A stretch of 64,000 nucleotides of DNA. Source: Nitrospirales bacterium. GTDB lineage: Bacteria; Nitrospirota; Nitrospiria; Nitrospirales; UBA8639. This document shows positions 21,016 through 63,202 of this stretch, piece by piece. The stretch spans positions 12,621-76,620 of the forward strand of contig BQIW01000005.1 in assembly GCA_021604105.1 (NCBI GenBank), given 5' to 3'. The translations under genes and the position numbers were made by a program. The notes below the pieces were generated by a model. That model had not been told where the DNA came from. It saw nothing but the letters and a program-made list of their open reading frames with translations, and ran no database searches. The stretch's first letter is position 1, and the number at the start of each line of letters is the position of its first letter.

Positions 21016-22725
21016 ATGGCTGCTACATTTCCATTGCTTTCATGGGTTCATGGCCTTCATTTCAATAACATACGGGGAGACCTGTATGGTGGATTAGTGG
21101 CAGCAGTCGTAGCATTGCCGCTAGCCTTGGCCTTTGGAGTGACATCGGGACTCGGGGCCATTGCCGGTCTGTATGGAGCTATTTTTGTAGGATTTTTCGC
21201 TGCCCTGTTCGGTGGAACTCCTGCACAGGCCTCAGGACCGACCGGTCCGATGACTGTGGTGATGGCCGGCATCATCCTGAACTTTGCCGATGAACCGGCA
21301 GTGGCATTTACGGCCGTCATCCTCGGCGGGGTATTTCAAGTCTTATTTGGACTGATGGGGTTTGGTCGTTATATCACTTTGGTCCCCTATCCTGTCATTT
21401 CCGGATTCATGAGCGGCATCGGAGGAATTATTCTTATTCTTCAGGTCGCCCCTTTTCTCGGCTTGGAAGCGAAGTCCAAAGTCGTGGACAACCTCATGGC
21501 AATGCCTGAATACCTCTCATCGTTTTCTTTCTCCGCAATCTTGGTAGGTTCTCTCACATTGGCCATTGTCTATCTCACTCCTCCCTCTATCGGCAAACGT
21601 CTTCCCCCAGTGTTGTTGGCACTCATCGTTGGAACGATCGTCGCTGAGATATTCTTTCCAACTCTTCCGGTTATCGGAGACATTCCGACAGGATTCCCCA
21701 CATTGATTTGGCCAACCATGCATACCGATGCTCTTGTCATGATGATCGAAGAAGCCCTTGTTCTGGCATTATTGGGAACGATTGATAGCCTGCTAACTTC
21801 TCTCGTGTGTGACAACATGACACGGACCCAACATGACTCCAATCGGGAATTGATCGGCCAGGGCATTGGCAATATGGCTGCGGGGTTTTTCGGAGGCCTT
21901 CCCGGAGCCGGGGCCACCATGCGATCCGTAGCAAACATTCGAACCGGAGGCCGCACGCCTCTCTCTGGCATGTTTATGGCGGTCGTCCTTCTCGGCACTC
22001 TGCTTGGATTAGGCCCTTTGGCCGAAAAAATTCCCCTTGCGGTTCTCGCAGGTCTCCTTGTCAAAGTTGGATTCGACATTATTGATTGGCGATTTCTGAA
22101 GCATATGGTACAAGCTCCACGAACCGAGGTTCTGGTGATGATCGTAGTCTTGTTGGTCACTGTTTTAGTCGACCTCATCACCGCGGTGGGAATTGGCGTG
22201 GTACTGGCCAGCGTGATGTTCGTAAAACGAATGTCCGACCTGGAACTTGAAAATCTCAGTCTGATCACGGGTACCTCGCTAGAAACACCGCTGTCAAAAG
22301 AGGAACAACGCATCCTGAGCCGAAACTCCGAACGCATTATCTTGATTCATGTGAATGGGCCGATGAGCTTCGGATCCGCTAAAGACATGGTTCGTCGATT
22401 AGAATCTGTGAAAAATTTTAATATTTTTTCCGCTGTGGTTCTCGATCTCACATCGGTGCCTTCCATCGACGGAACCGCTGCATTAGCCATCGAGGACATG
22501 GTGGCAATGGTGAAAACTCATCAGCAGCAGGTCTTTTTCGTGGGTATGCGTCCGGGGGTCGCTCGAGTTCTCAAAGGACTCGGGGTGCTCAATCAGGTCC
22601 CACCTGAACATCGATACCCTTTTCGATTGGATGCGTTACGCCACGCAGCCCATATTGGCGGATCGACCCATCCGTACGATGTTCCTCCCACAGAAGTGCA
22701 ATCTGAACACCTAGAATCCTCATGA
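21016..22725 (+). CDS. SulP-family anion transporter with C-terminal STAS domain (copy 1)
   Basis: 569 aa with the SulP N-terminal signature (GDLYGGLVAAVVALPLALAFGV.SG...GPTGPM) and a STAS end (VVLDLTSVPSIDGTAALAIEDM). Confidence 0.9.
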   Translation: MAATFPLLSWVHGLHFNNIRGDLYGGLVAAVVALPLALAFGVTSGLGAIAGLYGAIFVGFFAALFGGTPAQASGPTGPMTVVMAGIILNFADEPAVAFTAVILGGVFQVLFGLMGFGRYITLVPYPVISGFMSGIGGIILILQVAPFLGLEAKSKVVDNLMAMPEYLSSFSFSAILVGSLTLAIVYLTPPSIGKRLPPVLLALIVGTIVAEIFFPTLPVIGDIPTGFPTLIWPTMHTDALVMMIEEALVLALLGTIDSLLTSLVCDNMTRTQHDSNRELIGQGIGNMAAGFFGGLPGAGATMRSVANIRTGGRTPLSGMFMAVVLLGTLLGLGPLAEKIPLAVLAGLLVKVGFDIIDWRFLKHMVQAPRTEVLVMIVVLLVTVLVDLITAVGIGVVLASVMFVKRMSDLELENLSLITGTSLETPLSKEEQRILSRNSERIILIHVNGPMSFGSAKDMVRRLESVKNFNIFSAVVLDLTSVPSIDGTAALAIEDMVAMVKTHQQQVFFVGMRPGVARVLKGLGVLNQVPPEHRYPFRLDALRHAAHIGGSTHPYDVPPTEVQSEHLESS

Positions 22726-22925
22726 GGTCTATTTTGTAACAATGGAACTTTCCCTGATTTTGAAGGGGCATTCGTAGGGTAAGCTGAGTAACTCCTCACG
22801 ACTCGCACCACCTGAAAGGTCCCGATTCGAGAAAGATCACCAATCTACGTAATGACCATAGTGGTATTAATTTAATCAGTCAGACTCCATCTGAGACCAC
22901 CGGTCCGAAAGGTCACCCAACTGAA

Positions 22926-24518
22926 ATGAAGACGACCGTTCCACAAGCGCTCATACAGAATTTCCTGAACCACACTCCAACCTGGTACAAGCTGACCATT
23001 CTGGGATTCTTAATCCTCAATCCCATCTTATTGATGAGCATTGGGTCGTTTTACACCGGATGGGTTCTCATCCTGGAATTTATTTTTACGCTGGCACTGG
23101 CTCTCAAAAGTTATCCTCTACAACCCGGTGGCTTGCTCGCACTTGAGGCCGTTTTATTGGGGATGACTACACCCGCGACGGTTTATCATGAAGCACTCAA
23201 TAATTTCCAAGTGATCCTGTTATTGATTTTCATGGTGGCCGGAATCTACTTCATGAAAGATTTGCTCTTGTTTCTGTTTACGAAAATTTTATTGGGCGTC
23301 CGTTCAAAAATGTTGTTGGGACTCTTGTTTTCTATCATGGGTTCCTTTCTATCGGCTTTCCTTGATGCCTTGACCGTCACCGCGGTTATCATTGCCGTCG
23401 CGTTGGGTTTCTATAACATTTACCACCGCGTTGCCTCTGGCAAATCGTCTCAAACCTCTCATGATTCGACAAGCGATCACGAAATCGACGCACTTCACAG
23501 GGAAAATTTAGACAATTTTCGAGGCTTTCTTCGCAATTTATTAATGCACGGAGCCGTTGGGACGGCATTGGGCGGAGTCTGTACTCTCGTGGGGGAACCC
23601 CAAAATTTATTGATTGCGGACAAAGCGGGCTGGGAATTTATGGAGTTCTTCTTGCGCATGTCCCCCATAACCCTTCCAGTCTTGGTCACGGGATTGATCA
23701 CCTGCATGATCGTCGAGAAATTACGTTGGTTTGATTACGGCTTTCAACTCCCGGATTCGGTTCGTCTCATTTTGGTAGATTTCGAAACCGAACAACAGAA
23801 ACGACGGGATTCCGGGGACACCGCAAAGCTTATCATTCAAGCGATTGCAGGTATGTGGCTGATTGTGGCCTTAGCCTTTCACCTCGCGGAGGTCGGAATC
23901 ATCGGACTCTCGGTGATCGTGTTTATTACCGCCTTCAACGGGATTATCGAAGAGCATCAACTTGGAGAGGCGTTTAAGGAAGCGCTTCCCTTCACGGCGC
24001 TCCTTGTTGTCTTTTTCGCCATTGTGGCCGTCATCCAGGACCAGAACCTGTTTTCCGGCATCATCGGGTATGGATTGAGTTTGGAAGGATCGTATCAAAT
24101 CGGCATGTTTTACCTGGCCAATGGAATTCTGTCCGCCATCAGCGACAACGTCTTTGTTGCGACGGTTTACATCCAGGAAGTGCTCCGTGCCTTTCATGCG
24201 GGCACCATTACCCGCGATCAGTTTGACCTTTTAGCGGTTGCCATTAATACCGGCACCAATATCCCAAGTGTGGCCACCCCAAACGGACAAGCCGCATTTT
24301 TGTTTTTATTAACCTCCTCGCTGGCTCCGGTAATCCGCTTATCCTATGGGAAAATGGTGTGGATGGCGCTTCCCTATACCTTGACCATGGCGAATGTCGG
24401 CCTGTTTGCCGTGTATTTTTTCTTAGATCCGGCGACGGCATTTCTATACGACACCGGATTCATCCACCATCATAGCTTGACTGACTCAGGCAATCCCACA
24501 GAACCGCTAGCACATTAA
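22926..24518 (+). CDS. nhaB: NhaB-type Na+/H+ antiporter (copy 1)
   Basis: 530 aa. The N-terminus ([21 protein letters not shown]) and overall length and topology match NhaB. Confidence 0.85.
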
Positions 24519-24669: not shown

Positions 24670-25749
24670 TTACCGGGCCAGTGTCGCAACGGCTTCATTT
24701 TCCTGGATAACTCGCTCAGGATAGAGGACTATTTCTACTCGGCGATTTTGGGCTCTCCCCTCCTCGGTCTCATTAGTTGTGACCGGTCGCTTATCGGCAT
24801 AGCCGGTGGCTGAAAATTGCTTTGGATCCATTCCTGTTTGCTCAATCAGATACCGCAAGACTGTGGTGGCCCGTGCGGTTGAAAGTTCCCAGTTCGTCGG
24901 ATACTGTTTTTGCAGCCGGCCATAAATCCGGTGGCTGTCCGTGTGGCCTTCGACTTGGATATTTTTCCCCGGCAAGGTCGCTAACACCTGGCCCACCTGT
25001 TTCATAATCTCGAGCCCCAGGGGAGTCAAATCCGCCTCACCGGAATCAAACAGGACTTGCCCCAACATGGTCAGGACTAATCGGTCATGGTGTTGAGTCA
25101 CCACCAGACTTTTGCCAAATTTATCTTCAAGCGCCTTGGTAATGCGATCAATCTCTTCACCGACTGTGAGCACTTCATACTTGACCTTTGCCAATTGCGC
25201 TTCCTGAGCTTCCCGAGCTTTTCGGACCAGTTCCAATTCATGTTTTAAACGCTCTACCTCTTTGAGCCTGGCCTCCAATGCCGAAAGCTCGTTTTCCAAG
25301 AGCCCATTCTGTTCACGAAGGTGGGACATCTGGCTGATTTGCCCGTTTAAACCGGATCTGACCTTTGCGAGGGCTGCTGCCAAATCATGAAAATCCACCG
25401 GCTCTCCTCCAAAAAGAGGATCGGTCAGAGAAACGGTTCCTTCCGTGTTACCGAGTTTCCGAATTTGCGTATACAACGCTTCGACTTCTTGTTGAACCGC
25501 GGCTAATTGTTCTTCCTTCATTTGGTCTTGCACTTCTACGGTATGCTCGAGGGCCGTCTTCGATTCTTGAAGCTGCATGACTTCAATTTGCTTCTCTTCA
25601 ACAGCCTGCTGCAAGCGTTCGAGTTCCGCTATCGTGGACTCTTGGCTTTTTTCGTATTCCTGCAAAGCACGTTCATGTGATTGCTGACTCACACACCCGA
25701 CCACAACCGTACACGCCATTGCCACAAGTAAAGTGTTGCCCAGTTTCAT
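24670..25749 (-). CDS. OmpA/MotB-family lipoprotein with long coiled coil
   Basis: ATG at 25749 with an AGGAG SD, lipobox VVGC, a ~200-aa heptad-rich region and a C-terminal OmpA-like domain (GHTDS...N.ELS.ARA...NRRVEI). The track ORF is extended upstream. Confidence 0.8.
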   Translation of the reverse strand: MKLGNTLLVAMACTVVVGCVSQQSHERALQEYEKSQESTIAELERLQQAVEEKQIEVMQLQESKTALEHTVEVQDQMKEEQLAAVQQEVEALYTQIRKLGNTEGTVSLTDPLFGGEPVDFHDLAAALAKVRSGLNGQISQMSHLREQNGLLENELSALEARLKEVERLKHELELVRKAREAQEAQLAKVKYEVLTVGEEIDRITKALEDKFGKSLVVTQHHDRLVLTMLGQVLFDSGEADLTPLGLEIMKQVGQVLATLPGKNIQVEGHTDSHRIYGRLQKQYPTNWELSTARATTVLRYLIEQTGMDPKQFSATGYADKRPVTTNETEEGRAQNRRVEIVLYPERVIQENEAVATLAR

Positions 25750-26225
25750 GGTGCCTGCTCCTTCCCCTTCACCGCCTCTTCTCACCCCAGGTTCTCTACT
25801 ATCAATGACACCTGAGAATTCAAGACTGGTTGGTAACTTTGGGCCTATATGGTTTCGAGCCACTCTTCTGGGTGCCATGTTCATCCTTCCGGAGTGACCG
25901 GAGAATTCGTCTACCACCAAAAAGAGCAGAGAAGATTATTCTCGGCATTCCGGATAGGACACTTGAGGAAACCAACAGGAACAAGGAGAAAGTTGCTCAA
26001 AGAGGTCAGAATGGCCGGTCAATATCTCCCAATGAGATCAAATGACACGGTTTCAATTCACAAGGGATAAATAGGAAAAGATAAAAAGGGGAGGAATATT
26101 GGCACGAAGAGTATTGGCCTATGGAAGAGACTTGATCGTCATCACTCTTTCTCACCAACCCAGAGATCTCTCAGAATGGGGCCTTCAGGAGGTCGACTTT
26201 GTCCCTACTGCTGCAGCCTCGTCGT

Positions 26226-27734
26226 TTACCGAAACACCACCTCGTGAACCATGCCAACCTGATATTGAGCCATATGCTGAACCAAATTTGTGACACTGGA
26301 ATCCATCATTTCCATAAGTGGAGACGGGTACAGGCCGATCACCAAAATCAGAGCAGCAAGTGGGATCACGGTGGTCAACTCCCGTATACTCAGATCAGGA
26401 AGTTGTGCAATGGTCGAATTCTTGGGTTGACCCAACACCACCCGTTGGAGCATCCAGAGCATATACGCCGCCGCGAGGACAATGCCCCCCATGGACAACA
26501 ACACCATCATGTAGCTTTCAAAAGATGTTCCGACAAGAACCAAAAATTCTCCAATAAAATTGCACGTGCCAGGCAGTCCGAAGGATGCCACTGAAAACAG
26601 ACAAAAAAGTGCCACAAACCGAGGCATCGATTTTTGCAATCCTCCGTAATCCTGAATCGACCTGCTATGAGTCCGATCATACAATTGACCCACAGCCAAA
26701 AAGAGGGCTCCTGTGGTTATTCCATGATTCACCATCTGCAAGATGGCTCCTTGAATACCATGGTTATTGAACACGAAAATTCCCAATGTTACGAATCCCA
26801 TATGCGAAATGGACGAATACGCCACCAGCTTTTTCAGGTCCGACTGGGCCAAGGCCATATACCCTCCATACACAATAGCCGCCACGGATAGCCACAAGAT
26901 AAACGGAGCAAAGGTCACGGAGGCTTCAGGAAACATGGGGAGACAAAATCGTAGAAATCCATATCCACCCATTTTCAAGAGCACGCCTGCCAACAGAACG
27001 CTACCGGCAGTGGGAGCTTCGGAATGGGCATCCGGTAGCCATGTGTGAAACGGCAACATGGGTAATTTAATGGCAAAGGCCATGAAAAACGCCAGAAATA
27101 TCCAAAACTGGGCGTCAGGGGAATACGTGTTCTCTGCCAACGCTAAAATATCGAATGTCCGCCCCCCTTCCACGTACAACCCGAGTATCGCCAAGAGTAA
27201 GATTAGGCTACCTGACAAACTGTACAGAACAAATTTGATGCCAGCCGCTATGCGTTGGGGCCCCCCCCACAGAATGATCATAAAATACATAGGAATCATT
27301 GTGACTTCCCACAACATGAAAAACAAAAACAGGTCTAGAGCGGTAAACACCACAATCATGGCCCCTTCCACCAACAAAATCATGGCCATAAATGAGCGTA
27401 CACGAGTGGTAATTGACTTCCAGGAGCATAGGACGCAAAAGGGACAAAGCAGAGTCGTGAGTAAAACCAGAAGAAGACTAATGCCATCCACTCCAACAGC
27501 ATATTGAATATTAAAGGTCGGCATCCATGCCATCCGCTCGACGAATTGCATGCCTTGAGTGGAGAAATCAAATTCTCTCAAAAGCACGAGTGCAAGAACC
27601 CCATCCCCCAGCGTACACCCTAGAGTCACGCGCCGAATCCATTCCTGATTCTGTATACAAGCGATAATCCCAATGCCTAAAAACGGCATCGCAATCATGA
27701 TACTCAAAAGATGTTCAGTGAAGATTGTGTTCAT
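26226..27734 (-). CDS. NuoM/MrpD-like proton-pumping antiporter-type subunit (PF00361-like)
   Basis: 502 aa with ~14 TM and conserved WLPDAH.EAPT..SV.LA motifs. Confidence 0.85.
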   Translation of the reverse strand: MNTIFTEHLLSIMIAMPFLGIGIIACIQNQEWIRRVTLGCTLGDGVLALVLLREFDFSTQGMQFVERMAWMPTFNIQYAVGVDGISLLLVLLTTLLCPFCVLCSWKSITTRVRSFMAMILLVEGAMIVVFTALDLFLFFMLWEVTMIPMYFMIILWGGPQRIAAGIKFVLYSLSGSLILLLAILGLYVEGGRTFDILALAENTYSPDAQFWIFLAFFMAFAIKLPMLPFHTWLPDAHSEAPTAGSVLLAGVLLKMGGYGFLRFCLPMFPEASVTFAPFILWLSVAAIVYGGYMALAQSDLKKLVAYSSISHMGFVTLGIFVFNNHGIQGAILQMVNHGITTGALFLAVGQLYDRTHSRSIQDYGGLQKSMPRFVALFCLFSVASFGLPGTCNFIGEFLVLVGTSFESYMMVLLSMGGIVLAAAYMLWMLQRVVLGQPKNSTIAQLPDLSIRELTTVIPLAALILVIGLYPSPLMEMMDSSVTNLVQHMAQYQVGMVHEVVFR

Positions 27735-27868: not shown

Positions 27869-30046
27869 TCACACGACAAGCCAAAACAACAACCCAATCC
27901 CCACAATGAGCCAGAATATCATGACCAGTAAGTGGTGCTGTAACGTGCGGGGTTCCATTTCCTGCATCATATTCCCTGTGCTCGCTGCTTGATTTCCGGC
28001 ACGAATCACGTTCTTATCGAGAACTCTAATCTCGATTCTTTTCCATAACCAGTTGGCGATACCTAGGCTGCGTTGGCCGATACCCACGACGACCCGATCG
28101 ACACCACGAAGGTCCACCACCCGCCAAAGCCAACCGGCCATTCCTACGCTGTTCCGTCCCAAGCCTACTACCAGCCCGTCAATCCCCCGAAGGTCCACGA
28201 CCCGCCACATCCACTTTGCCGCCGCCACCGACACATTTGCGATTCCCATGATCATGGCGTCAAACACATTCCGGTCGACAACTCGCCAGAGCCATCGGGC
28301 CAACCGGAGGGTGGGCACCACAACATACGCATCATATATTTCGTCAAAATACAATTTATTCAGAAAGTGGACATACCATCGCTTACTCATTTTCGATTGT
28401 TGAAACCAGGAACCCGAAAATTTTGTCAAGGAAAAGTACCCAACTGCGATACCGCCTACTGCCACAGCCAATGCAACAATAAGTTGCAAGCCGGTCTCCC
28501 TCGAAGTGTGCCTCTGAATCGGAGCCATCCGATGTCCCACGACAGGGGAAAGAAATTCCGAAAACCAACTCCACAAGACCAGCAACAGGCTTCCAAACAT
28601 TCCAATGACAAACAAGATTCCCAGAAGATGGATGGGGGAAAAGAAGCGCGGCTTCATGGCCTGCTTTCCCATTCCACTTCCATAGCCTGTCGAAAGCGGT
28701 TCACCAAACAACACCAGCACACCCCGCATGACATACATGGATGAGAAAAATACTGTCAGAAATCCCAGAATCCAAAACGTCCATTGGGCTGAGGATCCCG
28801 GTTGAATCATCCACAATTGCTCATACGGCCCGAAAAAAATCAGGAACGGGGGAAGGCAGGCCAACAGCAGAGCTCCTAGCACTAAAGGCCCCATAGAAAG
28901 CATTGAGGACCCACGACGAGCAAGCGACGAAGGCGCATGCCCATGGGAGCCAACGGAACGAAGTGCATTTCCCGTCGATAAAAATAAGAACCCCTTTAAA
29001 CAGCCATGGGCCAACATATGAAAAATCGAGATGACAAAGGCTCCGACTCCGCAGGTCATGATCATGAAACCGATTTGACCAATGGTGGAAAACGCCAGCA
29101 TGCGCTTAATATCAACCTGAGTCAGGGAAACAAGGGTTGCAAAAAGTGCTGTCATACCCCCGATAACCGCAATGACAGTCATGGCTTCTGGCGAAAGTAT
29201 CACGAGGGGACTCATGCGAACCAACAAAAAGGGGCCCGCATTCACCATGGTCGCGGCGTGAATCAACGCGGAAACAGGGGTGGGCGCTTCCATGGCAAAG
29301 GGGAGCCAGACATGGAATGGCACTTGTGCGGATTTTCCCATGGCTCCCAGGAAAAGAAACAGTGTAATGAGAGTCAGGATGTGAATGGGCACGTCCACCC
29401 CCAGCCAGCCGAACAGATTGATGGTATTTCCCTGGAGCGATGGAGCTTCCGCTAAAATGGTCTGGATATCGAGTGTTCCAAAAATGGAATAAGTCAGAAT
29501 GATTCCAAAACCTAAGCCCACATCCGCGACCGAATTCACGAGAAAGGCCTTGGTCGCGGCTTGAGCCGATGATTGCCGCTCCCCCCAATGAGAAATTAGC
29601 AAATAAGAACAGATACCCATGATCTCCCAGAACACAAACATCATGAGCAGATTATTGCTCAAAACCAGCATGATCATGGCGAACGTAAACAGGGCAATGA
29701 CCGCAAAAAAACGATTATACCGGGGATCGCCGATCATATAACGCGACGCATACACATGCACCACGCTGCTCACACCAGTCACCAAGAGCAGGAGCAACAC
29801 CGTGAGCTGGTCGATGTAGAGACCCAAATCTACAATCAGGTCTCCCGATTTCATCAATCGATAGAGAGGAATGGAGAACGCCCCGTCAGTTGCCACTTGA
29901 GCAAACGCGATAGCGGAAAAAGCGAAAGAGAGGGCCATGGCAGGGATGCCGATCTTATGGCCTTGCTCTCCCAGCCAGGGTTTTCCCAGCACGAGAACCA
30001 GAACGGCCATCAGAGGAAGGAGGGGAATAAGGATGAGGAATGTCAT
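27869..30046 (-). CDS. NuoL/MrpA-like antiporter-type subunit with expanded lateral-helix region
   Basis: 725 aa with HVWLPFAMEAPTPVSALIHAATMV and a FDEIYD segment followed by repeated W.WRVVD units and a final TM. Confidence 0.85.
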   Translation of the reverse strand: MTFLILIPLLPLMAVLVLVLGKPWLGEQGHKIGIPAMALSFAFSAIAFAQVATDGAFSIPLYRLMKSGDLIVDLGLYIDQLTVLLLLLVTGVSSVVHVYASRYMIGDPRYNRFFAVIALFTFAMIMLVLSNNLLMMFVFWEIMGICSYLLISHWGERQSSAQAATKAFLVNSVADVGLGFGIILTYSIFGTLDIQTILAEAPSLQGNTINLFGWLGVDVPIHILTLITLFLFLGAMGKSAQVPFHVWLPFAMEAPTPVSALIHAATMVNAGPFLLVRMSPLVILSPEAMTVIAVIGGMTALFATLVSLTQVDIKRMLAFSTIGQIGFMIMTCGVGAFVISIFHMLAHGCLKGFLFLSTGNALRSVGSHGHAPSSLARRGSSMLSMGPLVLGALLLACLPPFLIFFGPYEQLWMIQPGSSAQWTFWILGFLTVFFSSMYVMRGVLVLFGEPLSTGYGSGMGKQAMKPRFFSPIHLLGILFVIGMFGSLLLVLWSWFSEFLSPVVGHRMAPIQRHTSRETGLQLIVALAVAVGGIAVGYFSLTKFSGSWFQQSKMSKRWYVHFLNKLYFDEIYDAYVVVPTLRLARWLWRVVDRNVFDAMIMGIANVSVAAAKWMWRVVDLRGIDGLVVGLGRNSVGMAGWLWRVVDLRGVDRVVVGIGQRSLGIANWLWKRIEIRVLDKNVIRAGNQAASTGNMMQEMEPRTLQHHLLVMIFWLIVGIGLLFWLVV
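27989..28294 (-). repeat. 3.8 tandem copies of an 81-bp / 27-aa unit inside the NuoL-like gene
   Basis: WLWRVVDRNVFDAMIMGIANVSVAAAK / WMWRVVDLRGIDGLVVGLGRNSVGMAG / WLWRVVDLRGVDRVVVGIGQRSLGIAN / WLWKRIEIRVLDKNVIRAGNQ (aa 585-686). Confidence 0.9.
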
Positions 30047-31545: not shown

Positions 31546-31922
31546 TCCAGCCTTTTGAGAATTTCTTCTTCGTCCAGGCTGCCGTATTTTTTATAAATGG
31601 CATCGGCCAACGCCAACGATACTCCAAGGGTGGCGACACCCACCACAATCGCCGTCAATGTCAGCACATGAGGGAGAGGATTCGCATAGACTTCTGGTTG
31701 AACGGTCTCGGTAGTGGAGAGCAAAATGGGCACCGTGGCACCTCGCTTGGCACTGGTGGTGACGAGGAAAAAGATCACACTTGTTTGCATGAGATACATC
31801 CCGATAAGTTTTTTCACCAGATTGTACCGGGTCACCATAATATAGATACCCCACAGAAACAGCAGGACAAAGGCAATGTAGTTGGGGCGCTGCAGCCACC
31901 CCCCGATCATCTCAAACATCAT
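31542..31922 (-). CDS. mrpC: MrpC/NuoK-like subunit
   Basis: 126 aa with 3 TM. The call rests on NuoK/MnhC-like size and position. Confidence 0.75.
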   Translation of the reverse strand: MMFEMIGGWLQRPNYIAFVLLFLWGIYIMVTRYNLVKKLIGMYLMQTSVIFFLVTTSAKRGATVPILLSTTETVQPEVYANPLPHVLTLTAIVVGVATLGVSLALADAIYKKYGSLDEEEILKRLE

Positions 31923-32361
31923 ATTCCTGCTCGGTATCGTGATAGGCCAAGCTGAGAACGATGGAGATCCCTGTTACCGCAACATCCACGGCCACGCCGA
32001 TTTGTGCCAGCAGAATCCCCGTATACCGACGTGCAGGAGCATCCAAACCCGGAATTTCCAAATTGGCATAGTTCAGAAATTCCCCACCTCCAATGAGACA
32101 TAAGCCACCCACTCCCACAAAAATAATCAATCCGATCCCATCGCCATGCAAGACCTTTTCCACCAAACGTCCCTGAGGTGACTTCAGCCCAAATACCAAA
32201 AAAGCCAGGATCATACTCGTCGTCCAAATGACGCCGGCCACAAACCCTCCTCCCGGGCCGTACTGGCCGAAGAACAAAACGTACAGGGCAAACAACTGCG
32301 CCAGAGGAATGAGCAAACGACTCATGGTCTGAACGATGATGCTGTCGTGGATCTGTTTCAT
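31912..32361 (-). CDS. mrpB: MrpB-like subunit (MnhB domain, C-terminal part)
   Basis: 149 aa with the GQYGPGGGFVAGV motif typical of the MnhB domain. Confidence 0.7.
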   Translation of the reverse strand: MKQIHDSIIVQTMSRLLIPLAQLFALYVLFFGQYGPGGGFVAGVIWTTSMILAFLVFGLKSPQGRLVEKVLHGDGIGLIIFVGVGGLCLIGGGEFLNYANLEIPGLDAPARRYTGILLAQIGVAVDVAVTGISIVLSLAYHDTEQEYDV

Positions 32362-32891: not shown

Positions 32892-33187
32892 TGGTCTTCC
32901 TCCGTCTGAGGTTTGAGGCCGGCCCGATACGCGGCTCGAACGGTTGCATGAGCGATGACCGGATTCAACAGCATGAGCAAGACCAGGACGACCAGAATCT
33001 TCAGCATATTGATCCCGAAACCCTGGTACAGAGCAAGGCCCGCGAGGACACAAATCGCGCCCAGGGAATCGGTCAGGGAGACCGCATGGGATCGCGAAAA
33101 CACGTCGGGGAGGCGTATCGTGCCAATTGCAGCCACCACAAGGAAGAAGATCCCCACCAGAATTAACCCGATGGCAAGAACGACCAT
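32888..33187 (-). CDS. mrpG: MrpG-like subunit
   Basis: 99 aa with the GTIRLPDVFSRSHA motif typical of MnhG/PhaG. Confidence 0.8.
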   Translation of the reverse strand: MVVLAIGLILVGIFFLVVAAIGTIRLPDVFSRSHAVSLTDSLGAICVLAGLALYQGFGINMLKILVVLVLLMLLNPVIAHATVRAAYRAGLKPQTEEDQ

Positions 33188-53425: not shown

Positions 53426-53515
53426 TCCTAATTTCCTCCGACTCAATCCTCTCATTCGTCATCGCCTGGCAAAGAAGGTACACGTGCGCCTTTAAAATCC
53501 ATAGAAAATTTCATC

Positions 53516-55169: not shown

Positions 55170-55464
55170 CGTATCTCCATACACAACCAAAGCAAACCAT
55201 ACTAATTTTCATTTTCAATAATTTCCTATTCACCTACTTGGGCCACGCAAAACCAATACCAAGTTCCAGATATTGAGGAATCTGCACGAGGCATTGAAAA
55301 AGCACAACGAAATACCATGGTTCCCTGCTCCTTACAAAATGTCTGAATCCTTAGGTTGGAGTGATGCCGTTGATTCCGATTAATTTTCAATATTGGGTGT
55401 GCGTCGGTATCAGATTTTCCCCTGACTACTGGCTTCATGCACAGTGGCCATCACTTGAAAAAAG

Positions 55465-55925: not shown

Positions 55926-57314
55926 ATGCGTGCAACAATTTATGTGACCGACGATGATCAAAACGTGTGTTCCGCGTTAAGTCGCCGGTTGGTAAAAAAA
56001 GGGCACCTCGTGAGAAGCTTTCATTCAGGACCCTCGCTCATTGAGGCCTTGGAACATGAACTTCCTGATTTGCTGTTCCTGGATCTTAAAATGCCGGAGA
56101 TGGATGGACTCGAGACCTTACGACACATTCGACAAAAGATCCCGAAAACCCTGATTGTCATGTTGACCGCTTATGGGAGCGTGGAAGATGCAGTGGAGGC
56201 GATGAGGCTCGGAGCTTATGATTTTCTGATTAAATCCATTGATTTCTCAACGGTTGAACCAGCCTTACATCGCGCCATTACCTTCCTGGAGCTAAGGCGT
56301 CGGATTGAGTTTTCTGCTTCTGAGAAACAACGGCAATATTCCTGGGAACATGTCATCGCCAGGAGTCCAGCCATGTCCAAGGTTATCGAACAACTCAAAT
56401 CTTTCGACGCTCAGGACGTCCCCTTAGTGTTTTTTCAAGGGGAGGTTGGGACGGGGAAAGAATTCTTGGCACGTATTCTTCATTATAATAGCCACCAACA
56501 GCTCGGCCCGTTTGTTACGGTCAGTTGCAACGAACAGAGGGGATCACTCCTTGAACCTCAATTATTTGGATATGAACGGGGAGCATTTAGTGGTGCCAGT
56601 CAAAGCATGCCGGGAGCATTTGAACATTCCGACGGGGGAACCCTATTTATTGATGAGATTGAACATCTGTCAATTCCCATTCAGGGATCATTGGCGGAGG
56701 CGATTCGTACTCGTGCATTTTGTCGAATGGGAGGTTTTGACCGCCTCCCCATCAAAAATCGACTTGTGGTAACCAGTGCGATTCCACTGGATCAACCGGG
56801 CCACCAGGAAATATTTCATCCAGAGTTACGTTCTCTACTCGAAAAACAACAACTCTTTATTCCTCCCCTCCGAGAACGGAAAGAAGATATCATCCCTTTG
56901 GTGATCAAAACCATTCACGCCTATGGTGAAGAAATCGGCCGTCCAAAACTCGATATTGATTCTTCGGTACCTCCACTTTTGGATACGTATCAATTCCCGG
57001 GAAATATTCGAGAATTAGAGGCCATGATTCGCAGGGCGGTATTATGCTCGCAGGGACCTGTCCTTACTTCACTGGACTTTTATTCTCAACATCCTGGCGG
57101 CGGAGAAGGTCTCTCTCCAAATACCGGTCGGGTTCTTTTTGAAATCGGCCAACACAGTCTACAGGACATCCAAGTCATGGTGATTGATGAAGTCTTGCGA
57201 TTCACCAAACAAGACAAAGAACAGGCAGCTGGCTATCTACACATTTCTACACAGGCACTGGATGAACATATTCAACTACGGAAAAACTTCTCCCCTGTGA
57301 CAGAGAGGTCCTGA
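55926..57314 (+). CDS. NtrC-family response regulator paralog (copy 2) with divergent AAA+ C-terminal motifs
   Basis: REC domain (DLLFLDLKM), Walker A GEVGTGKE, GAFSGA and Walker B LFIDEI. VVTSAIPL and FHPELRSLLE replace the AATNRDL and FREDLFFRLN seen in copy 1. A C-terminal HTH is present. Confidence 0.8.
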   Translation: MRATIYVTDDDQNVCSALSRRLVKKGHLVRSFHSGPSLIEALEHELPDLLFLDLKMPEMDGLETLRHIRQKIPKTLIVMLTAYGSVEDAVEAMRLGAYDFLIKSIDFSTVEPALHRAITFLELRRRIEFSASEKQRQYSWEHVIARSPAMSKVIEQLKSFDAQDVPLVFFQGEVGTGKEFLARILHYNSHQQLGPFVTVSCNEQRGSLLEPQLFGYERGAFSGASQSMPGAFEHSDGGTLFIDEIEHLSIPIQGSLAEAIRTRAFCRMGGFDRLPIKNRLVVTSAIPLDQPGHQEIFHPELRSLLEKQQLFIPPLRERKEDIIPLVIKTIHAYGEEIGRPKLDIDSSVPPLLDTYQFPGNIRELEAMIRRAVLCSQGPVLTSLDFYSQHPGGGEGLSPNTGRVLFEIGQHSLQDIQVMVIDEVLRFTKQDKEQAAGYLHISTQALDEHIQLRKNFSPVTERS

Positions 57315-57854: not shown

Positions 57855-58622
57855 ATGCCGATTCTTTCAGCACCCCTTTCTTCTTCAACCGAAACACCTC
57901 CAGGGTCCTTCAATTTCAAGAAAACATTGGAACGGAATTTTCCAGGAGCCTACCCCTCCGATGCCTTCGTGGATTATTCCCAATTCCGGTTGCACCCCTT
58001 TGGCATGAATCAGAAAAACTCAATCGCCTGTGTGAGCGTGTGTCGGGACGAGATAGCCACCCCCTTCATGAACAGACTGCATCATGCCTGGAATGGAGTA
58101 TTTAACTTTTCAAGTCTGGCCGGAATGCTGTACCTGGGTATAACGGGATTTCAAGCCGCCCATCATCATGCACCCAATACTGATGCCAGAGAAAAATACG
58201 TGTATTTTGCCTTTCCCCATATCGCCATCGATGAAAATGGCACTCCCGGAAATTGCCGCCGCACAGGACGCCAAGCCTTGTCCCAAGCTTGCGGCGCATT
58301 GATTAAGATTCTTCAAGACCCACCTCGAGGGGAAGCCAGCTTGAACTTGGATCCAGACGACGTGGAGCAGAGTCTCCTCACCCAACGCCTGTTTAAAAAA
58401 TTTGGATTCGGAGAAATTCCTGATTTGGTCACTTTGACCAAAGGCACCCAACAGATCATCAGAGAAGACCTTGAACGGATGATACAACTAACCATCGATC
58501 CCAGGAGAACCGACTATGCGGTATTTACCGGTATACAAATTCACGGTCCAGCCCATAAGGACTGGATTTGGATTGAAACTTCATATGTTTTCGTTGATGG
58601 GGTAAGAAAACCATTACTGTAA
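57855..58622 (+). CDS. conserved hypothetical; candidate LCIB/LCIC-like beta-carbonic-anhydrase-fold protein
   Basis: 255 aa. Cys63 lies in VCRDE (C-x-D), followed by His122 (FPHIAID) and Cys146. The 59- and 24-residue spacings are close to the Cys/His/Cys zinc triad I recall for diatom LCIB4. The family call is from memory only. Confidence 0.4.
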   Translation: MPILSAPLSSSTETPPGSFNFKKTLERNFPGAYPSDAFVDYSQFRLHPFGMNQKNSIACVSVCRDEIATPFMNRLHHAWNGVFNFSSLAGMLYLGITGFQAAHHHAPNTDAREKYVYFAFPHIAIDENGTPGNCRRTGRQALSQACGALIKILQDPPRGEASLNLDPDDVEQSLLTQRLFKKFGFGEIPDLVTLTKGTQQIIREDLERMIQLTIDPRRTDYAVFTGIQIHGPAHKDWIWIETSYVFVDGVRKPLL

Positions 58623-59604: not shown

Positions 59605-59821
59605 ATCCCGCACCCTCTTCGGTTTTCCTGATTCTTTACTGCACGTGGTTTGCTCTTCGCCCATCGTCCAATTGCCCTAGCCACAACTTTAGGTTTTTTC
59701 AAGAGAAAGAGTATGAGGTCTTGTGGATCTCCTGCTATAGTTTTGTATAACTCATACTCAAGCAATGGGTGAACTGTAAGCAAGAAAGATGGTATGCAGG
59801 CCTACAAGTCAGGTTAAATTT

Positions 59822-60397
59822 ATGACTCGTCAGTTCTTTTTCATACTCCTTTTCTCTATTCTCATTTCCCTGGGAATTGGTGTGGGTATCGGAGGCCAAC
59901 TTGCACCACAGGAAGGCATGCCTATCCGTGTGGTCGCAAACTATTTACACGCCGTTCTTCAAGCAGACCGGACCTTTTACACCCAACATGTCGTGGAACG
60001 GATGGAAGATATGCTTATTGTGACCGCAACGGAAAATTGGCGGGAAGAACGGACATTGCCTTTGCCCGCACAATTTTTTAAAGAAGCCTCCCGTGGATTA
60101 CAGGTTTCCGGCAAACCATTTCGATATCGGTTGATGGGTCTTTGGCCATTGAATCCCGAGAATGCGCCTCACAATGCCCGTGAACGTAAAGCCCTGGAGC
60201 AAGTTGTGGAATATGGAGAAGTGACTGATCAAGAAATCCAGATAGAGAATCAGTCTTATTATCAAGCTATTTTTCCTGATCGGGCGGTGAGCCGAGCCTG
60301 CATCAACTGCCATAATGCCCATAAGGACAGTCCCAAACGGGACTTTAAATTAAATGATGTCATGGGAGGACTGGAAATTTTAATTCCCCTTAACTAA
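59822..60397 (+). CDS. DUF3365 (Tll0287-like) c-type haem sensor-domain protein
   Basis: Signal anchor from the ATG at 59822 and a single C-terminal CxxCH (CINCHNAHK) followed by ...DVMGGLEILIPL, as in DUF3365. Confidence 0.7.
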   Translation: MTRQFFFILLFSILISLGIGVGIGGQLAPQEGMPIRVVANYLHAVLQADRTFYTQHVVERMEDMLIVTATENWREERTLPLPAQFFKEASRGLQVSGKPFRYRLMGLWPLNPENAPHNARERKALEQVVEYGEVTDQEIQIENQSYYQAIFPDRAVSRACINCHNAHKDSPKRDFKLNDVMGGLEILIPLN

Positions 60398-60575: not shown

Positions 60576-61346
60576 ATGAGACTTGTTCACGGGCTACAAT
60601 TCAACAACCTCTGCCGTGATATCTATGGAGGGATGGTTCACGCAGTCGTGGCCCTACCATTGGCGTCGCTTTAGGCGTGGTTTCTGGTCTAGGAGCCTTT
60701 GCCGGTTTATACGGGGCTATAGTTGTCGGATTTATTGCCGCGCTTTTCGGAGGTATCCCCGCTCAGGTTTCCCGCCCCACGGGCCCCATGACTGTGGTGA
60801 TGGCCGTAATCGTCACAATCTTCGCAGAGAATCCTGGTTTGATCCTGATGGCCGTGATTCTTGGTGGTGTCTTTCAAATCCTGTTGAGAACTTCCAGGGA
60901 GGGACAGTTCATCGCGTTGGTCCCGTATGCGGCTGGCTCGGGATTCATGAGCGGCATTGGCTATGTCATTCTCATTTTGCAATTGAGTCCTCTGGTAGGC
61001 CATGCCGCCAGACCTGAGGGTGTAGTCGCGATGCACAAGGCATTCAAGGAATTTATGGAAACCCGGTGGGGGATGCCACCCTTGCAGGGGTCCTTATTTT
61101 GGCCATTATGTATCCATGGTCCGACCTTTGGAAACCGTTCCGGGCTTTAATACAATTTCTGGCGTTGTTTTGGATTTATCCAAAGTCCCAACTATTGCCG
61201 GGACAGAGGCCCTGGATGGATCGGGAGGACTGGTGCAAATTCGGCCTGACCATGGTTTTGCCAGCCGGTTGAAGGCCCTGCAGAAAGGTTCCTTGGTAGA
61301 AGGAGCGATCCGAGTGACCAATCACGCCCCCTCGGCATCAAATTAG
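60576..61346 (+). pseudogene. decayed SulP-family transporter gene (frameshifts plus large internal deletion)
   Basis: Three reading frames together spell SulP1-like segments. They are MRLVHGLQFNNLCRDIYGGMVHAVVALPLASL*, then GLGAFAGLYGAIVVGFIAALFGGIPAQVSRPTGPMTVVMA...SGFMSGIGYVILILQ, then GDATLAGVLILAIMY, then the STAS-like ISGVVLDLSKVPTIAGTEAL. About 350 aa of the TM core are missing. Confidence 0.75.
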
Positions 61347-61379: not shown

Positions 61380-62756
61380 TTGGACACCAAAAATTGGGTA
61401 ATTAGAAATATGCACGAAACATCTATCCAGACCATCTTTGGTTTCTCTCCACTTTGGATAGCTACATCAATTTTAATATTGACCTATGCCGTCATTATTG
61501 CTGAACGGTTTAACCGGGCAATTGTGGCGCTTCTTGGAGCCACTGCCATTATTGGAACAGGAGTCCTCACGCAAGACCAAGCGATTCAAGGCATTGATTT
61601 CAATACCATCGGCCTACTCACCGGCATGATGATCCTGGTCGGAATTACCAAAGAATGCGGCATCTTTCAATTTCTCGCGATCAAAGCCGCGAAGGCAGCC
61701 AAGGGTAGTCCGTGGGGTATCCTCGTTATGCTCTCAATTGTCACCGCAGTGCTCTCGGCATTATTAGATAATGTCACGACGGTGCTGTTGGTCGCCCCGG
61801 TTACCTTGCTCATTGCAGACGAACTGGAAATCAGTCCGTATCCTCTGCTATTCGCAGAAATCAACGCCTCAAATACAGGTGGTACCGCGACGCTGATTGG
61901 AGATCCTCCCAACATTATGATCGGCTCGGCTACCAGTTTGACGTTTAATGATTTCGTGATTCATCTGACTCCCCTCGCCATTGTTGTCTTTAGTGCGACC
62001 CTTATTTCACTTTGGTTTATCTATGGAAAAACCATGTTCGCGTCCCCCGAAGCCCGATCCCGCATCATGGCGTTTAACGAATATGAGGCCATTCGGGATG
62101 TTGGCCTACTAAAATATTGTCTTGTGGTCTTTAGCCTGGTTATTCTCGGGTTTATCCTGGCCCATTCGATAGGTATGGAACCCGCCACCATTGCTCTGGG
62201 TGGCGCCGCCCTGCTCCTGTTACTCTGCACATTTTCCCTAAACATCGAACAAGCAGGGCATAAAGTTCATACCATGTTTGGACAAGTGGAATGGATTACC
62301 ATTTTCTTTTTCTGCGGCTTGTTCATTATCGTCACCGGCGTGGAACATACCGGTCTTTTACAGTCCATTGCAGATTGGACAGTAAGTCTAACCGCAGGAA
62401 ATTTCACGGTTACCACCCTGGCTATTCTTTGGGTTTCGGCTATTCTTTCATCAATCGTCGACAACATTCCATTTGTAGCCACGATGATTCCTATGATCAA
62501 AAGCATGCTCCCGGTCTTTCAACAAGCGGGTATTCCGCTTGAACAGGCCAAGTCCCTTTGGTGGGCATTATCGTTGGGCGCATGCTTAGGAGGAAATGGG
62601 ACACTGGTGGGAGCCTCAGCCAATTTGATTGTGGCGGGGATTGCGGAACGCAATGGCGTGCCATTTCGATTTCTACCATTTTTCAAAGTGGCCTTTCCTC
62701 TGATGATCCTACAAATACTGCTCAGCACCCTTTACATTTGGATGAGGTATTTATGA
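61380..62756 (+). CDS. ArsB/NhaD-superfamily (citrate-transporter-like) permease
   Basis: ~450 aa, polytopic, with LLDNVTTVLLVAPV and GGTATLIGDPPNIMIG motifs typical of this superfamily. The start is TTG 61380 or ATG 61410. Confidence 0.75.
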   Translation: MDTKNWVIRNMHETSIQTIFGFSPLWIATSILILTYAVIIAERFNRAIVALLGATAIIGTGVLTQDQAIQGIDFNTIGLLTGMMILVGITKECGIFQFLAIKAAKAAKGSPWGILVMLSIVTAVLSALLDNVTTVLLVAPVTLLIADELEISPYPLLFAEINASNTGGTATLIGDPPNIMIGSATSLTFNDFVIHLTPLAIVVFSATLISLWFIYGKTMFASPEARSRIMAFNEYEAIRDVGLLKYCLVVFSLVILGFILAHSIGMEPATIALGGAALLLLLCTFSLNIEQAGHKVHTMFGQVEWITIFFFCGLFIIVTGVEHTGLLQSIADWTVSLTAGNFTVTTLAILWVSAILSSIVDNIPFVATMIPMIKSMLPVFQQAGIPLEQAKSLWWALSLGACLGGNGTLVGASANLIVAGIAERNGVPFRFLPFFKVAFPLMILQILLSTLYIWMRYL

Positions 62757-63202
62757 ACGCCAAGGACATCATGATCCGGCAGGCCCACACCATTCCAGTT
62801 CAATGTACGATCGGAGAGGCCCTTCGCCAAATGGCGGATCTACGCATCCAGGCTTTTCCAATTGTAGATGAGAAAAAGATGGTAGTGGGAACACTGAGTT
62901 TCTGGCAGATTCTTGAATGGGCTATGCCTTCCTACATTTCTCAAGATGATCTTTCCGACGTTCGATTCGCTCCAGACCTTGCCCAGTTCCACGAACGGCT
63001 TGGAGAACTTAAACCCAAGCCAGTCACTCAGGTAATGAACCCCCAGCCCCCATGTGTCAGGCCGGATGACTCCGTACTTGCCTGCGCGGTCCTGATCATG
63101 AAAACCCCGAAAACCGTCTATTTACTTCCGGTGGTGGAAACAGACCAGCAACTGGTTGGAGTCATCTCTGCATGGGACATTATTAAGGAAATCACAGGGT
63201 AG
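62753..63202 (+). CDS. CBS-domain pair protein
   Basis: The ATG overlaps the permease stop (ATGA). It has two CBS-like repeats (AKDIMIRQAHTIPV...FPIVDE; VTQVMNP...LPVVETDQQLVGVISAWDIIK). Confidence 0.75.
   Translation: MNAKDIMIRQAHTIPVQCTIGEALRQMADLRIQAFPIVDEKKMVVGTLSFWQILEWAMPSYISQDDLSDVRFAPDLAQFHERLGELKPKPVTQVMNPQPPCVRPDDSVLACAVLIMKTPKTVYLLPVVETDQQLVGVISAWDIIKEITG

Follow-up and report, generated by a model that had tools for sequence, protein, structure and literature searches.

The characterized DAB and Mps systems are inorganic-carbon pumps (10.1101/476713). In the DAB2 complex, a cryo-EM preprint shows a glutamate in the finger of DabA taking the place of NuoL residues K399/D400 in DabB (10.64898/2026.03.13.711513). 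A second preprint describes DAB1 as a DabA–DabB–DabC heterotrimer in which DabC aligns with the NuoM helices next to NuoL (10.64898/2026.05.01.722082). Here we describe a 64,000-nucleotide stretch from a Nitrospirales bacterium (assembly GCA_021604105.1, contig BQIW01000005.1, positions 12,621 to 76,620; called the window below and numbered from its first letter), in which a long DabA stands before a nine-gene Mrp-like antiporter operon and close to SulP transporters, NhaB antiporters and an LCIB-type carbonic anhydrase. We read the 42 kb from 21016 to 63202 as a chromosomal neighborhood of several modules, each conserved on its own, that serve inorganic-carbon supply and Na+/H+ exchange, among them a proposed DabA–Mrp supercomplex and a predicted sigma-54 regulon, and give this reading a probability of roughly 0.55.

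Parts of this picture have been drawn before in relatives. In Ca. Nitrospira alkalitolerans, Daebeler et al. (2020) described a locus where a group-3 mrp cluster and two nuoL/nuoM-like genes are found together with nhaB, bicA and motB, and proposed that Na+ extruded by the antiporters drives BicA (PMC7784846). Bayer et al. (2021) counted five SulP genes of BicA-like type in N. marina (PMC8115632), and a 2025 comparison of Nitrospirales found lineage-IV nuoL/nuoM beside Mrp and read the arrangement as adaptation to salinity and alkalinity (PMC12342949). A preliminary description of the present stretch had proposed an island for Na+ cycling and inorganic-carbon acquisition, and the Na+–bicarbonate part of that idea is a rediscovery of what is already published for relatives (PMC7784846, PMC8115632). 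DabA/DUF2309 and LCIB are not mentioned in PMC7784846 (text and supplements), PMC8115632 or PMC12342949, nor is a sigma-54 regulon in PMC7784846 (text and supplements) or PMC8115632. A 2017 COGNAT neighborhood study noted that some ybcC operons hold COG0659 and NuoM and did not identify their function (PMC5700660). The searchable literature yielded no description of the DabA–Mrp unit, the COGNAT observation coming nearest to one, and, as far as it shows, both the DabA–Mrp–NuoLM unit and the sigma-54 LCIB/SulP regulon are undescribed.

Gene calls in the window are based on a six-frame listing of open reading frames (ORFs) combined with Pfam and NCBIfam scans. SulP1 and NhaB1 lie on the plus strand at 21016–24518. 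The minus strand then carries an OmpA/MotB-like gene, the nine-gene Mrp-like operon and, on the upstream side of the operon, DabA. Beyond DabA come a divergent MpsC gene, a gene for a 242-aa protein, a di-heme oxidoreductase (DHOR), a beta-helix protein, a small membrane protein and priA. A minus-strand block of RR1, a CHASE3 kinase, NhaB2, SulP2 and an Alginate_exp barrel follows, and the stretch closes with a plus-strand block of RR2, LCIB, a Tll0287-like gene, a decayed SulP, a CitMHS permease and a CBS-pair protein.

The DabA gene (34431..37457, minus strand) encodes a long-form protein of 1008 aa that matches PF10070 at 855 bits against a cutoff of 25. It aligns with DabA2 (9rd0_A) at E=1.7e-109 with the zinc site in register, where C508, D510, R512, H699 and C714 correspond to DabA2 C351, D353, R355, H524 and C539. 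These residues are invariant in 79 orthologues, which bears out the earlier claim of an intact carbonic anhydrase–like site. The single hydrophobic segment of the protein (residues 599–623) contains D607, the acid of the finger motif, which aligns with DabA2 E444 and is also invariant in the 79 orthologues. Two related DabA genes, in loci L033 and L073 (L numbers denote individual comparison loci), contain internal stop codons. MpsC/DUF2294 is encoded divergently from DabA (37709..38347, plus strand; PF10057, 119.5 bits), as had been suggested, with a likely start at 37976 that gives 123 aa; a 123-aa homologue is called in L001. The same divergent position upstream of DabA is found in many Nitrospirota loci.

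The long DabA is distinct from the canonical form. In one Nitrospinia and one Nitrospirales metagenome-assembled genome (MAG), a canonical DAB1-like operon lies directly beside a long DabA–Mrp unit (L049, 2807–9396; L029, 13047–19673). It consists of DabB, a membrane protein of ~380–410 aa, a 1082-aa DabA and a downstream gene for ~110 aa that is PII-like by guess only. Long and canonical DabA thus coexist in these loci as distinct paralogues, with ~33% identity between the adjacent proteins in the N-terminal part and 53% in the C-terminal part.

The tightly packed operon downstream of DabA (26226–33945, minus strand) is the nine-gene Mrp-like antiporter of the preliminary description, and its transcription order is E-F-G-A'-B-C-D-NuoL-NuoM. 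The first three genes encode MrpE (33454..33945; PF01899, 108 bits), MrpF (33188..33457) and MrpG (32888..33187), the latter two called as ORFs whose homologues in L001 and L002 match PF04066 and PF03334, respectively. An equivalent of the MrpA C terminus follows (32358..32891), with MbhD and MbhE domains (DUF4040; PF13244, PF20501), a score of 156 bits against the NF009159 cutoff of 141 and a start taken from its 177-aa L001 homologue. MrpB (31912..32361; PF04039), the NuoK-like MrpC (31542..31922; PF00420) and an MrpD-like subunit (30076..31545; PF00361) complete the first seven genes. The MrpD-like protein retains the lysine of transmembrane helix 12 (TM12), and none of its top NCBIfam matches, which are models for Mrp subunit D, reaches the cutoff. 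With the NuoL-like protein as the equivalent of the MrpA N-terminal part, the operon holds a full set of MrpA–G equivalents.

The last two genes are of the complex-I type. The NuoL-like subunit (27869..30046, 725 aa) scores 476 bits against TIGR01974 (cutoff 407.5), and against PDB sequences it scores 288 bits with ND5/NuoL, 141 with MrpA and 117 with DabB2. In E. coli NuoL numbering it retains E144, K229, H254, H334, H338 and K342, and has Pro-Tyr at the positions of K399/D400. Position 399, in TM12, is never Lys in 64 NuoL-like orthologues, and the TM12 Lys is likewise missing from canonical DabB in L029 and L049. The lateral-helix region is ~80 residues longer than that of E. coli NuoL and contains four 27-aa repeats, starting at residues 585, 612, 639 and 666 (span 585–692) with the motif W-L/M-W-R-V-V-D, of which E. 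coli NuoL has one unit. This four-repeat helix suggests an unusually long membrane arm; in other complexes from Nitrospirota, insertions of ~26 aa in the lateral helix have been tied to additional pump subunits (PMC9040806). The ninth gene encodes a NuoM-like subunit of 502 aa (26226..27734) that scores 620 bits against TIGR01972 (cutoff 264) and retains E143, K223, K254 and E396, equivalent to E. coli NuoM E144, K234, K265 and E407, with its TM12 Glu in place.

The pairing of long DabA with this operon is conserved well beyond the window. A scan of one genome per species, with the long-DabA alignment as query, returned 80 loci that were annotated by tblastn; 60 of them have at least 9.8 kb downstream of DabA and could be used for the comparison. 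All nine Mrp-like genes are colinear after DabA in 57/60, colinearity is broken only by insertions in two more (L023 and L029), and L024 alone lacks Mrp-like genes. The loci are labeled Nitrospirales, Nitrospinaceae, Pirellulales/Planctomycetota, Bryobacterales/Acidobacteria and others, so that the DabA–Mrp unit is conserved in at least four phyla: Nitrospirota, Nitrospinota, Planctomycetota and Acidobacteriota. In many lineages the gap between DabA and MrpE is only −12 to about 30 bp. Nine Nitrospirota loci (including L042, L030 and L024) carry a gene for an HtrA/DegP-like protease between DabA and MrpE, and in L024 DabA and this protease gene stand with no Mrp cluster within 10 kb.

A reverse test, in which an MrpD alignment was searched against metagenome contigs, gave a clean split by identity. 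Where MrpD was at least 49% identical, DabA lay upstream in 7/7 contigs with enough upstream DNA, and DabA lay upstream in 0 of ~35 more distant EFG-A'-BC-D-D-D clusters with several kilobases of upstream DNA. In these non-DabA clusters MrpD is at most 44% identical, and the order E-F-G-A'-B-C-D is followed by two further D-type genes. The DabA-linked cluster is therefore a specialized offshoot of a widespread nine-gene Mrp type.

Other genes travel with the unit. In about 40 loci across phyla, a SulP that is absent from the window (here SulPx; 64–86% identical among loci and ~25% identical to the window SulP proteins) lies directly upstream of long DabA. In one Pirellulales MAG (L043, 7665–9826), a Pro_CA beta-carbonic anhydrase and then a SulP without a STAS match stand directly before the long DabA–Mrp unit. 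Within Nitrospirota, the unit is accompanied by two small genes, found either upstream of MpsC or downstream of NuoM. One encodes the soluble 242-aa protein (38438..39166, plus strand), a Nitrospirota-specific neighbor of DabA–Mrp without a Pfam or NCBIfam match; its family is small (56 representatives at E<=1e-10 in an exhaustive search), and its single-sequence AlphaFold model is unusable (pLDDT 40). The other encodes a membrane protein of 146 aa with two hydrophobic segments (42439..42879, plus strand), which co-occurs with DabA–Mrp in Nitrospirota.

A second module is outlined by its promoters. The sigma-54 consensus TGGCAC-N5-TTGCW has a single zero-mismatch match in the window, TGGCACTTCTTTTGCT at 57780-57795 (plus strand), 60 nt before the start of LCIB, where ~0.015 would be expected from base counts. 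An upstream site, TTTAGCACAG at 57656-57665, lies 124 nt upstream of this promoter. SulP2 has a near-consensus sigma-54 promoter (53531-53516, minus strand) preceded by two TTTCGCACAG sites (53655-53646 and 53679-53670). Exact copies of the decamer TTTNGCACAG number three in the window, two before SulP2 and one before LCIB, where ~0.5 would be expected. The SulP2 copies are 24 bp apart, 124 and 148 nt upstream of their promoter. The Tll0287-like gene has a near-consensus promoter, TGGCATTTGCCTTGCT at 59409-59424, with a one-mismatch copy of the decamer, TATCGCACAG at 59284-59293, 125 nt upstream of it (both plus strand). These two elements are all that the 1.2-kb AT-rich segment between LCIB and the Tll0287-like gene holds (58623–59788, ~43% GC), which is devoid of a credible ORF. 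The layout of promoter and upstream site before SulP, LCIB and Tll0287 is repeated in two other Nitrospirales genomes (L083, L084), where perfect sigma-54 promoters precede Tll0287. SulP2–NhaB2 (with the kinase and RR1 behind them), LCIB and Tll0287–CitMHS–CBS look like one predicted regulon.

The regulators lie in the same stretch. RR1 (46316..47704, minus strand) is an NtrC-type sigma-54 activator with GAFTGA and Walker A motifs and an HTH_8 domain, and it adjoins the histidine kinase, Tll0287, SulPx and DabA in L026, L034 and L036. Next to it is a CHASE3-HAMP-PAS histidine kinase found by domain scan (47708..49633, minus strand). RR2 (55926..57314, plus strand), the second of the two sigma-54 activators that the preliminary description had counted beside the kinase, is paralogous to RR1 with a GAFSGA variant and a divergent HTH; its sensor-I and arginine-finger regions are also altered, and it may be a weakened or regulatory paralogue. 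The TTTCGCACAG-type decamer, which the window lacks outside these three promoter regions, is probably bound by RR1 or RR2. The DHOR gene also has a near-consensus sigma-54-like promoter, TGGCATTGAAATTGCT at 41316-41301 (minus strand), and similar promoters precede DHOR in L004, L040 and L056. Because the DHOR promoter has no TTTCGCACAG site, a different sigma-54 activator is suggested for it. No sigma-54 promoter was found before the Alginate_exp barrel gene.

The gene under the perfect promoter encodes a protein of 255 aa (57855..58622, plus strand) that matches PF18599 at 174 bits, and the candidate LCIB-like protein noted earlier is indeed a member of the LCIB/LCIC family of theta/beta-type carbonic anhydrases. 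It aligns with the crystal sequences of LCIC (5b5x) and LCIB (5k5w) at E of about 1e-36, with identical CRDE, PHIAI and ACGAL motifs. Among 21 bacterial homologues C63, R64, D65, E66 and C146 are invariant and H122 is at least 90% conserved; C63, D65, H122 and C146 are presumably the zinc ligands, as reported for LCIB by Jin et al. (2016). No hydrophobic segment was detected, and the protein is for that reason probably cytoplasmic. The homologues of L083 and L084 are 76% and 71% identical to it. LCIB homologues are present in many bacteria, including one in Syntrophus that stands in an unrelated gene context.

Both SulP proteins in the window carry a STAS domain and are BicA-like by their nearest solved structure. 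SulP1 (21016..22725, plus strand; PF00916, 313 bits) scores 384 bits against 6ki1, the BicA transmembrane domain, and 173 against SLC26Dg, 6ki1 being its nearest solved SulP/SLC26 structure. The more divergent SulP2 (51626..53455, minus strand; PF00916) scores 269 bits against 6ki1, again the nearest, and 125 against SLC26Dg. A fused Pro_CA_2 domain is found in proteins that share 67–69% identity with SulP1. Each SulP is paired with an NhaB, as had been described: NhaB1 (22926..24518, plus strand) scores 809 bits against PF06450 and 852 against NF007093 (cutoff 640), NhaB2 (49949..51589, minus strand) 792 and 834 bits, and both fall slightly below the TIGR00774 cutoff of 826 in that model. The Alginate_exp outer-membrane barrel (53778..55190, minus strand; PF13372, 142.5 bits), earlier called anion-porin-like, stands upstream of SulP2 and is kept upstream of SulP–NhaB in L083 and L084.

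The third SulP is a pseudogene, as the preliminary description had recognized. Its tblastn fragments at 60585..61307 (plus strand) correspond to SulP1 residues 11–37, 36–195 and 446–550 in two reading frames, with a frameshift and an internal deletion of ~250 residues, and are 53% identical to SulP1 over residues 36–195. In L084 (3680–3937) it is the NhaB gene beside SulP that is cut down, to an 85-residue fragment, which parallels the decayed SulP of the window and indicates that the transporter pairs turn over. Before the pseudogene is the Tll0287-like gene (59789..60397, plus strand; PF11845; likely start 59822), whose product has an N-terminal hydrophobic segment and a CxxCH motif (CINCH); in L083 and L084 this gene comes after LCIB, and in L086 SulP and CitMHS flank it.

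Behind the pseudogene is a permease (61380..62756, plus strand; PF03600, 298 bits) that the preliminary description had called NhaD-type. That identity fails, with 48 bits against a TIGR00775 cutoff of 577 and 33 bits against 80 for NF038006. MamN and ArsB models are also below cutoff, and the protein is placed in the CitMHS/IT superfamily only. A CBS-pair protein follows (62753..63202, plus strand; PF00571; 149 aa from an internal ATG), and a CBS gene also comes after CitMHS in L087. The operon on that metagenome contig, CitMHS–CBS–SulP::Pro_CA_2 (L087, 2654–6605), mirrors the decayed-SulP/CitMHS/CBS arrangement of the window. In L086 the order is SulP–Tll0287–CitMHS, and in L126 and L168 CitMHS genes immediately precede Mrp clusters without DabA. 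SulP and Mrp both seem to have CitMHS-type permeases as regular partners.

Clustering of these families is more than chance, as they recur together in differing orders in other Nitrospirales genomes. Close relatives keep the full gene order of the neighborhood. All modules adjoin one another in the genome to which L045 and L083 belong, with the DabA block inverted relative to the SulP/LCIB block; in L026, L034 and L036 the order is RR1-HK-Tll0287-SulPx-MpsC-DabA-Mrp, where HK is the histidine kinase; and Ca. Nitronereus thalassa (L086) keeps SulP, RR1-HK and SulP–Tll0287–CitMHS together. In L084 the LCIB/SulP module stands amid unrelated genes. The association is recurrent, not obligatory, and describes a set of cooperating or co-selected modules.

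The word island does not fit. Pfam scans found no transposase or integrase genes in the window, nor RuBisCO or carboxysome genes, in agreement with the preliminary description; ARAGORN found no tRNA genes and Rfam no RNA families at gathering thresholds. The GC content runs from 0.43 to 0.53 without a step. Since synteny is also common to relatives, a mobile or compositional island can be rejected.

The closest DabA homologues are in Nitrospirales MAGs (identity up to 88%), SulP1 shares 93% identity with a protein from Ca. Nitrospira allomarina, and DNA of the window was found only in biofilm metagenome DNA runs. On the strength of these nearest relatives and of the biofilm occurrence, the window is assigned to a lineage-IV, marine-type Nitrospira. 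Lineage-IV marine Nitrospira are nitrite oxidizers that fix CO2 via the reductive tricarboxylic acid (rTCA) cycle (PMC8115632), which explains the missing RuBisCO and carboxysome genes.

For the way these genes work together, including the assembly of the DabA–Mrp arm, its ion coupling, the substrates, the direction of catalysis and the signal sensed, we infer two modules. The first would be a ten-gene unit, dabA plus mrpE-F-G-A'-B-C-D-nuoL-nuoM, with divergent mpsC, whose products would assemble into a single supercomplex in the membrane, with an Mrp antiporter as the chassis for a vectorial carbonic anhydrase of DAB type. The finger of DabA (D607) would dock into the NuoL-like subunit, placed distally in an extended Mrp arm, because the TM12 Lys is lost as in DabB and the finger acid is invariant, and the full-length NuoM-like subunit would sit in the DabC position. 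Ion flow via the Mrp arm would drive CO2 + H2O -> HCO3- + H+ one way while the arm exchanges Na+ for H+.

The second module would be a sigma-54 regulon under the CHASE3 kinase, RR1 and RR2, with the barrel gene, SulP2–NhaB2, LCIB and Tll0287–(decayed SulP)–CitMHS–CBS as its members. HCO3- would enter together with Na+ through the BicA-like SulPs, NhaB would return the Na+ to the outside, and LCIB would keep HCO3- and CO2 in equilibrium to supply the rTCA carboxylases. SulP1–NhaB1 would be a second copy of the importer/antiporter pair.

In its strongest form, the proposal is that the DabA–MrpEFGA'BCD–NuoL–NuoM supercomplex couples CO2 hydration mechanically to Na+/H+ exchange, as a nonredox counterpart of NDH-1MS. 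It could also mark an evolutionary link from Mrp and complex-I arms to DAB1, with DabB a trimmed NuoL and DabC a vestigial NuoM, and the unit could have spread horizontally among marine Nitrospirota, Nitrospinota, Planctomycetota and Acidobacteriota. We hold this only tentatively, as a possibility that the odds do not favor. If true, the CO2 pumps of bacteria would gain a third architecture, in which a DAB-type carbonic anhydrase is built into an entire Mrp antiporter. Carbon uptake would then be linked to the sodium cycle, and the coupling of ion flow in complex I–type arms to chemistry in a peripheral subunit could be approached directly. Nitrospira and Nitrospina are major CO2 fixers of the dark ocean and are not known to have carboxysomes, and the way rTCA autotrophs secure inorganic carbon is poorly known. 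The sigma-54 regulon, with its CHASE3 kinase, RR1/RR2 and defined upstream site, offers a testable circuit for inorganic-carbon acquisition in nitrite oxidizers and, to our knowledge, would be the first functional context for bacterial LCIB homologues.

Several observations weigh against reading the neighborhood as a joint carbon-supply system. Neither SulP reaches the BicA equivalog cutoff of 880 bits (NF050096), SulP1 scoring 585 bits and SulP2 337, and that score does not fix their substrate. In the window lineage, ~485 bp with weak promoter-like and terminator-like sites separate dabA from mrpE, and a generic promoter and terminator scan of 24.4–39.3 kb gave counts no higher than shuffled sequence. 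No sigma-54 promoter or upstream site precedes dabA, mrpE or sulP1 in the window, and no consistent sigma-54 signature precedes them in the 80 related loci. With both elements missing upstream of DabA and MrpE, co-regulation with the sigma-54 set is not supported, and DabA–Mrp is probably controlled differently. A pump that hydrates CO2 would be short-circuited by a carbonic anhydrase free in the cytoplasm, such as LCIB, if the two worked at the same time, and different regulation of LCIB and DabA–Mrp may resolve this opposition. Metatranscriptome contigs 85–99% alike span most genes of the window, but this RNA evidence comes from contigs of relatives only, is silent on conditions and may include DNA. 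Published work reads the Mrp/NuoLM cluster as adaptation to salt and alkalinity (PMC7784846, PMC12342949).

The distribution of the unit adds a further point on that side. The DabA–Mrp core, with or without SulPx, is also present in MAGs labeled Pirellulales/Planctomycetota and Bryobacterales, orders that we know only as heterotrophic. The preliminary description had proposed to judge a carbon role by whether the genes are confined to autotrophs, and by that standard the core is not autotroph specific. DABs are known from heterotrophs too (10.1101/476713). As to its idea that the loci cooperate in carbon uptake, the recurrence of the families, the BicA-nearest SulPs, the SulP–carbonic anhydrase fusions, the shared sigma-54 promoters and the DabA–Mrp linkage speak for it, and the absence of a sigma-54 signature from DabA–Mrp speaks against it. 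The observation of clustering is confirmed and its interpretation partly supported.

A role mainly in salt and alkaline-pH homeostasis is a serious rival, which we consider rather unlikely. Mrp and NhaB would extrude Na+ and import H+, DabA and LCIB would hydrate CO2 chiefly to provide or buffer protons in the cytoplasm, the SulPs would balance anions, and carbon gain would be a side effect. Mrp and NhaB are classical Na+/H+ antiporters. Nitrospina and Pirellulales are marine-associated lineages, and the occurrence of the core in MAGs of orders known to us only as heterotrophs fits the same view. Several holders are marine associated, among them lineage-IV Nitrospira (PMC12342949), and the Mrp/NuoL/NuoM cluster of lineage IV and of Ca. 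N. alkalitolerans has been read as a saline or alkaline adaptation (PMC7784846, PMC12342949). Against this, two proteins of carbonic anhydrase type, the BicA-like SulPs, the SulP–carbonic anhydrase fusions and a beta-carbonic anhydrase by SulPx–DabA all point to inorganic carbon, and the characterized DAB and Mps systems are inorganic-carbon pumps (10.1101/476713). Nor do the two roles exclude each other.

A smaller complex would do without the Mrp arm. DabA, the NuoL-like and the NuoM-like subunit alone could form a DAB1-like complex, with MrpE-F-G-A'-B-C-D a separate antiporter whose genes happen to lie in between. The DAB1 heterotrimer, with a DabC that resembles part of NuoM (10.64898/2026.05.01.722082), is a precedent, and by type the NuoL-like and NuoM-like genes belong with complex I, not with Mrp. 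We nonetheless find this improbable. The seven Mrp genes alone would lack the N-terminal, NuoL-type subunit of MrpA; they are nested between dabA and nuoL/nuoM in 57/60 loci with overlapping or near-abutting frames; the lateral helix, ~80 residues longer with its four repeats, fits a long arm over a dimer; and in related clusters without DabA, three D-type subunits fill these positions. The least probable account is inherited synteny without cooperation, with independent modules and SulPs that may carry sulfate or other anions, for which the interspersed unrelated genes (priA, DHOR, the beta-helix protein), the LCIB/SulP module amid unrelated genes in L084 and the context of the Syntrophus LCIB homologue can be cited, but the families re-associate in at least three gene orders across Nitrospirales lineages, and SulP2–NhaB2, LCIB and Tll0287–CitMHS have a conserved promoter architecture in common.

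The neighborhood of inorganic-carbon and Na+/H+ modules that we favor includes and adjoins genes of other kinds. The OmpA/MotB-like peptidoglycan-binding protein (24670..25920, minus strand; PF00691; likely start 25749) falls below the cutoff of all MotB/MotS models, and its gene comes after NuoM in lineage-IV and some other Nitrospirales loci. The DHOR/DUF1111 gene lies at 39505..41118 (minus strand; PF06537). ORFs at 45623–45976 and 55465–55848 have no family and an odd composition and are probably not genes. Outside the 42 kb, 3108–16138 and 17058–20892 hold an MSHA/type-II-secretion-like pilus cluster (T2SSE, T2SSF, secretin and pseudopilins), an HD_5/DUF3391 gene and a GAF gene. In Ca. 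Nitronereus thalassa (L086), too, the SulP/Tll0287/CitMHS cluster is bordered by a T2SSE/MshEN gene.

Among known systems, the bicA–antiporter clusters of Aphanothece halophytica, Ca. Nitrospira alkalitolerans and Nitrospira marina share with the window a BicA-like SulP beside NhaB and Mrp, and the same model, in which Na+ extrusion powers HCO3- uptake, has been put forward for them (PMC7784846, PMC8115632). The LCIB/LCIC proteins of Chlamydomonas and diatoms have the PF18599 domain and motifs in common with the window protein. Unlike these algal proteins, it is bacterial, has no pyrenoid context and stands under a sigma-54 promoter beside an NtrC-type regulator. All three families of the MpsABC system of Staphylococcus aureus are also found here, as the NuoL-like subunit (MpsA-like), DabA (MpsB) and MpsC/DUF2294. 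In the window, MpsC is divergent and the unit has seven further Mrp subunits and a NuoM-like one.

The split-MrpA nine-gene clusters (E-F-G-MbhD/E-B-C-D-D-D) have the same first seven genes and then two PF00361 genes; the last two genes of the window operon are instead of NuoL type and NuoM type, and DabA stands before MrpE. With the cyanobacterial NDH-1MS/MS' complexes (NdhF3/NdhD3/CupA) the likeness is one of concept and an analogy only: a carbonic anhydrase–like protein on distal NuoL/NuoM-type subunits of a long membrane arm related to complex I, and one-way CO2 hydration. CupA and DabA are unrelated, and the window unit has no redox module. Its proximal end would be the MrpEFG/A'/B/C cation module, in place of the NdhA and Q-module subunits of NDH-1MS.

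The DAB pumps (the DabA–DabB pump DAB2 of Halothiobacillus neapolitanus, DAB1 of Thermocrinis albus) have an adjacent, stand-alone DabB. The partner in the window is the eighth gene counted within the nine-gene Mrp-like operon; no PF00361 gene abuts dabA, and the nearest ones lie inside that operon. The partner scores as a complex-I NuoL (288 bits) over DabB2 (117 bits), keeps the TM5 Glu where the canonical DabB of L029 and L049 has Gln, and has a long repeated lateral helix unlike that of DabB. The finger acid is Asp in the window DabA, where DabA2 has Glu. The two are alike in the PF10070 zinc site, in an acidic membrane finger and in a NuoL-type PF00361 partner without the TM12 Lys/Asp, and the position of DabC in DAB1 would here be taken by the adjoining NuoM-type subunit.

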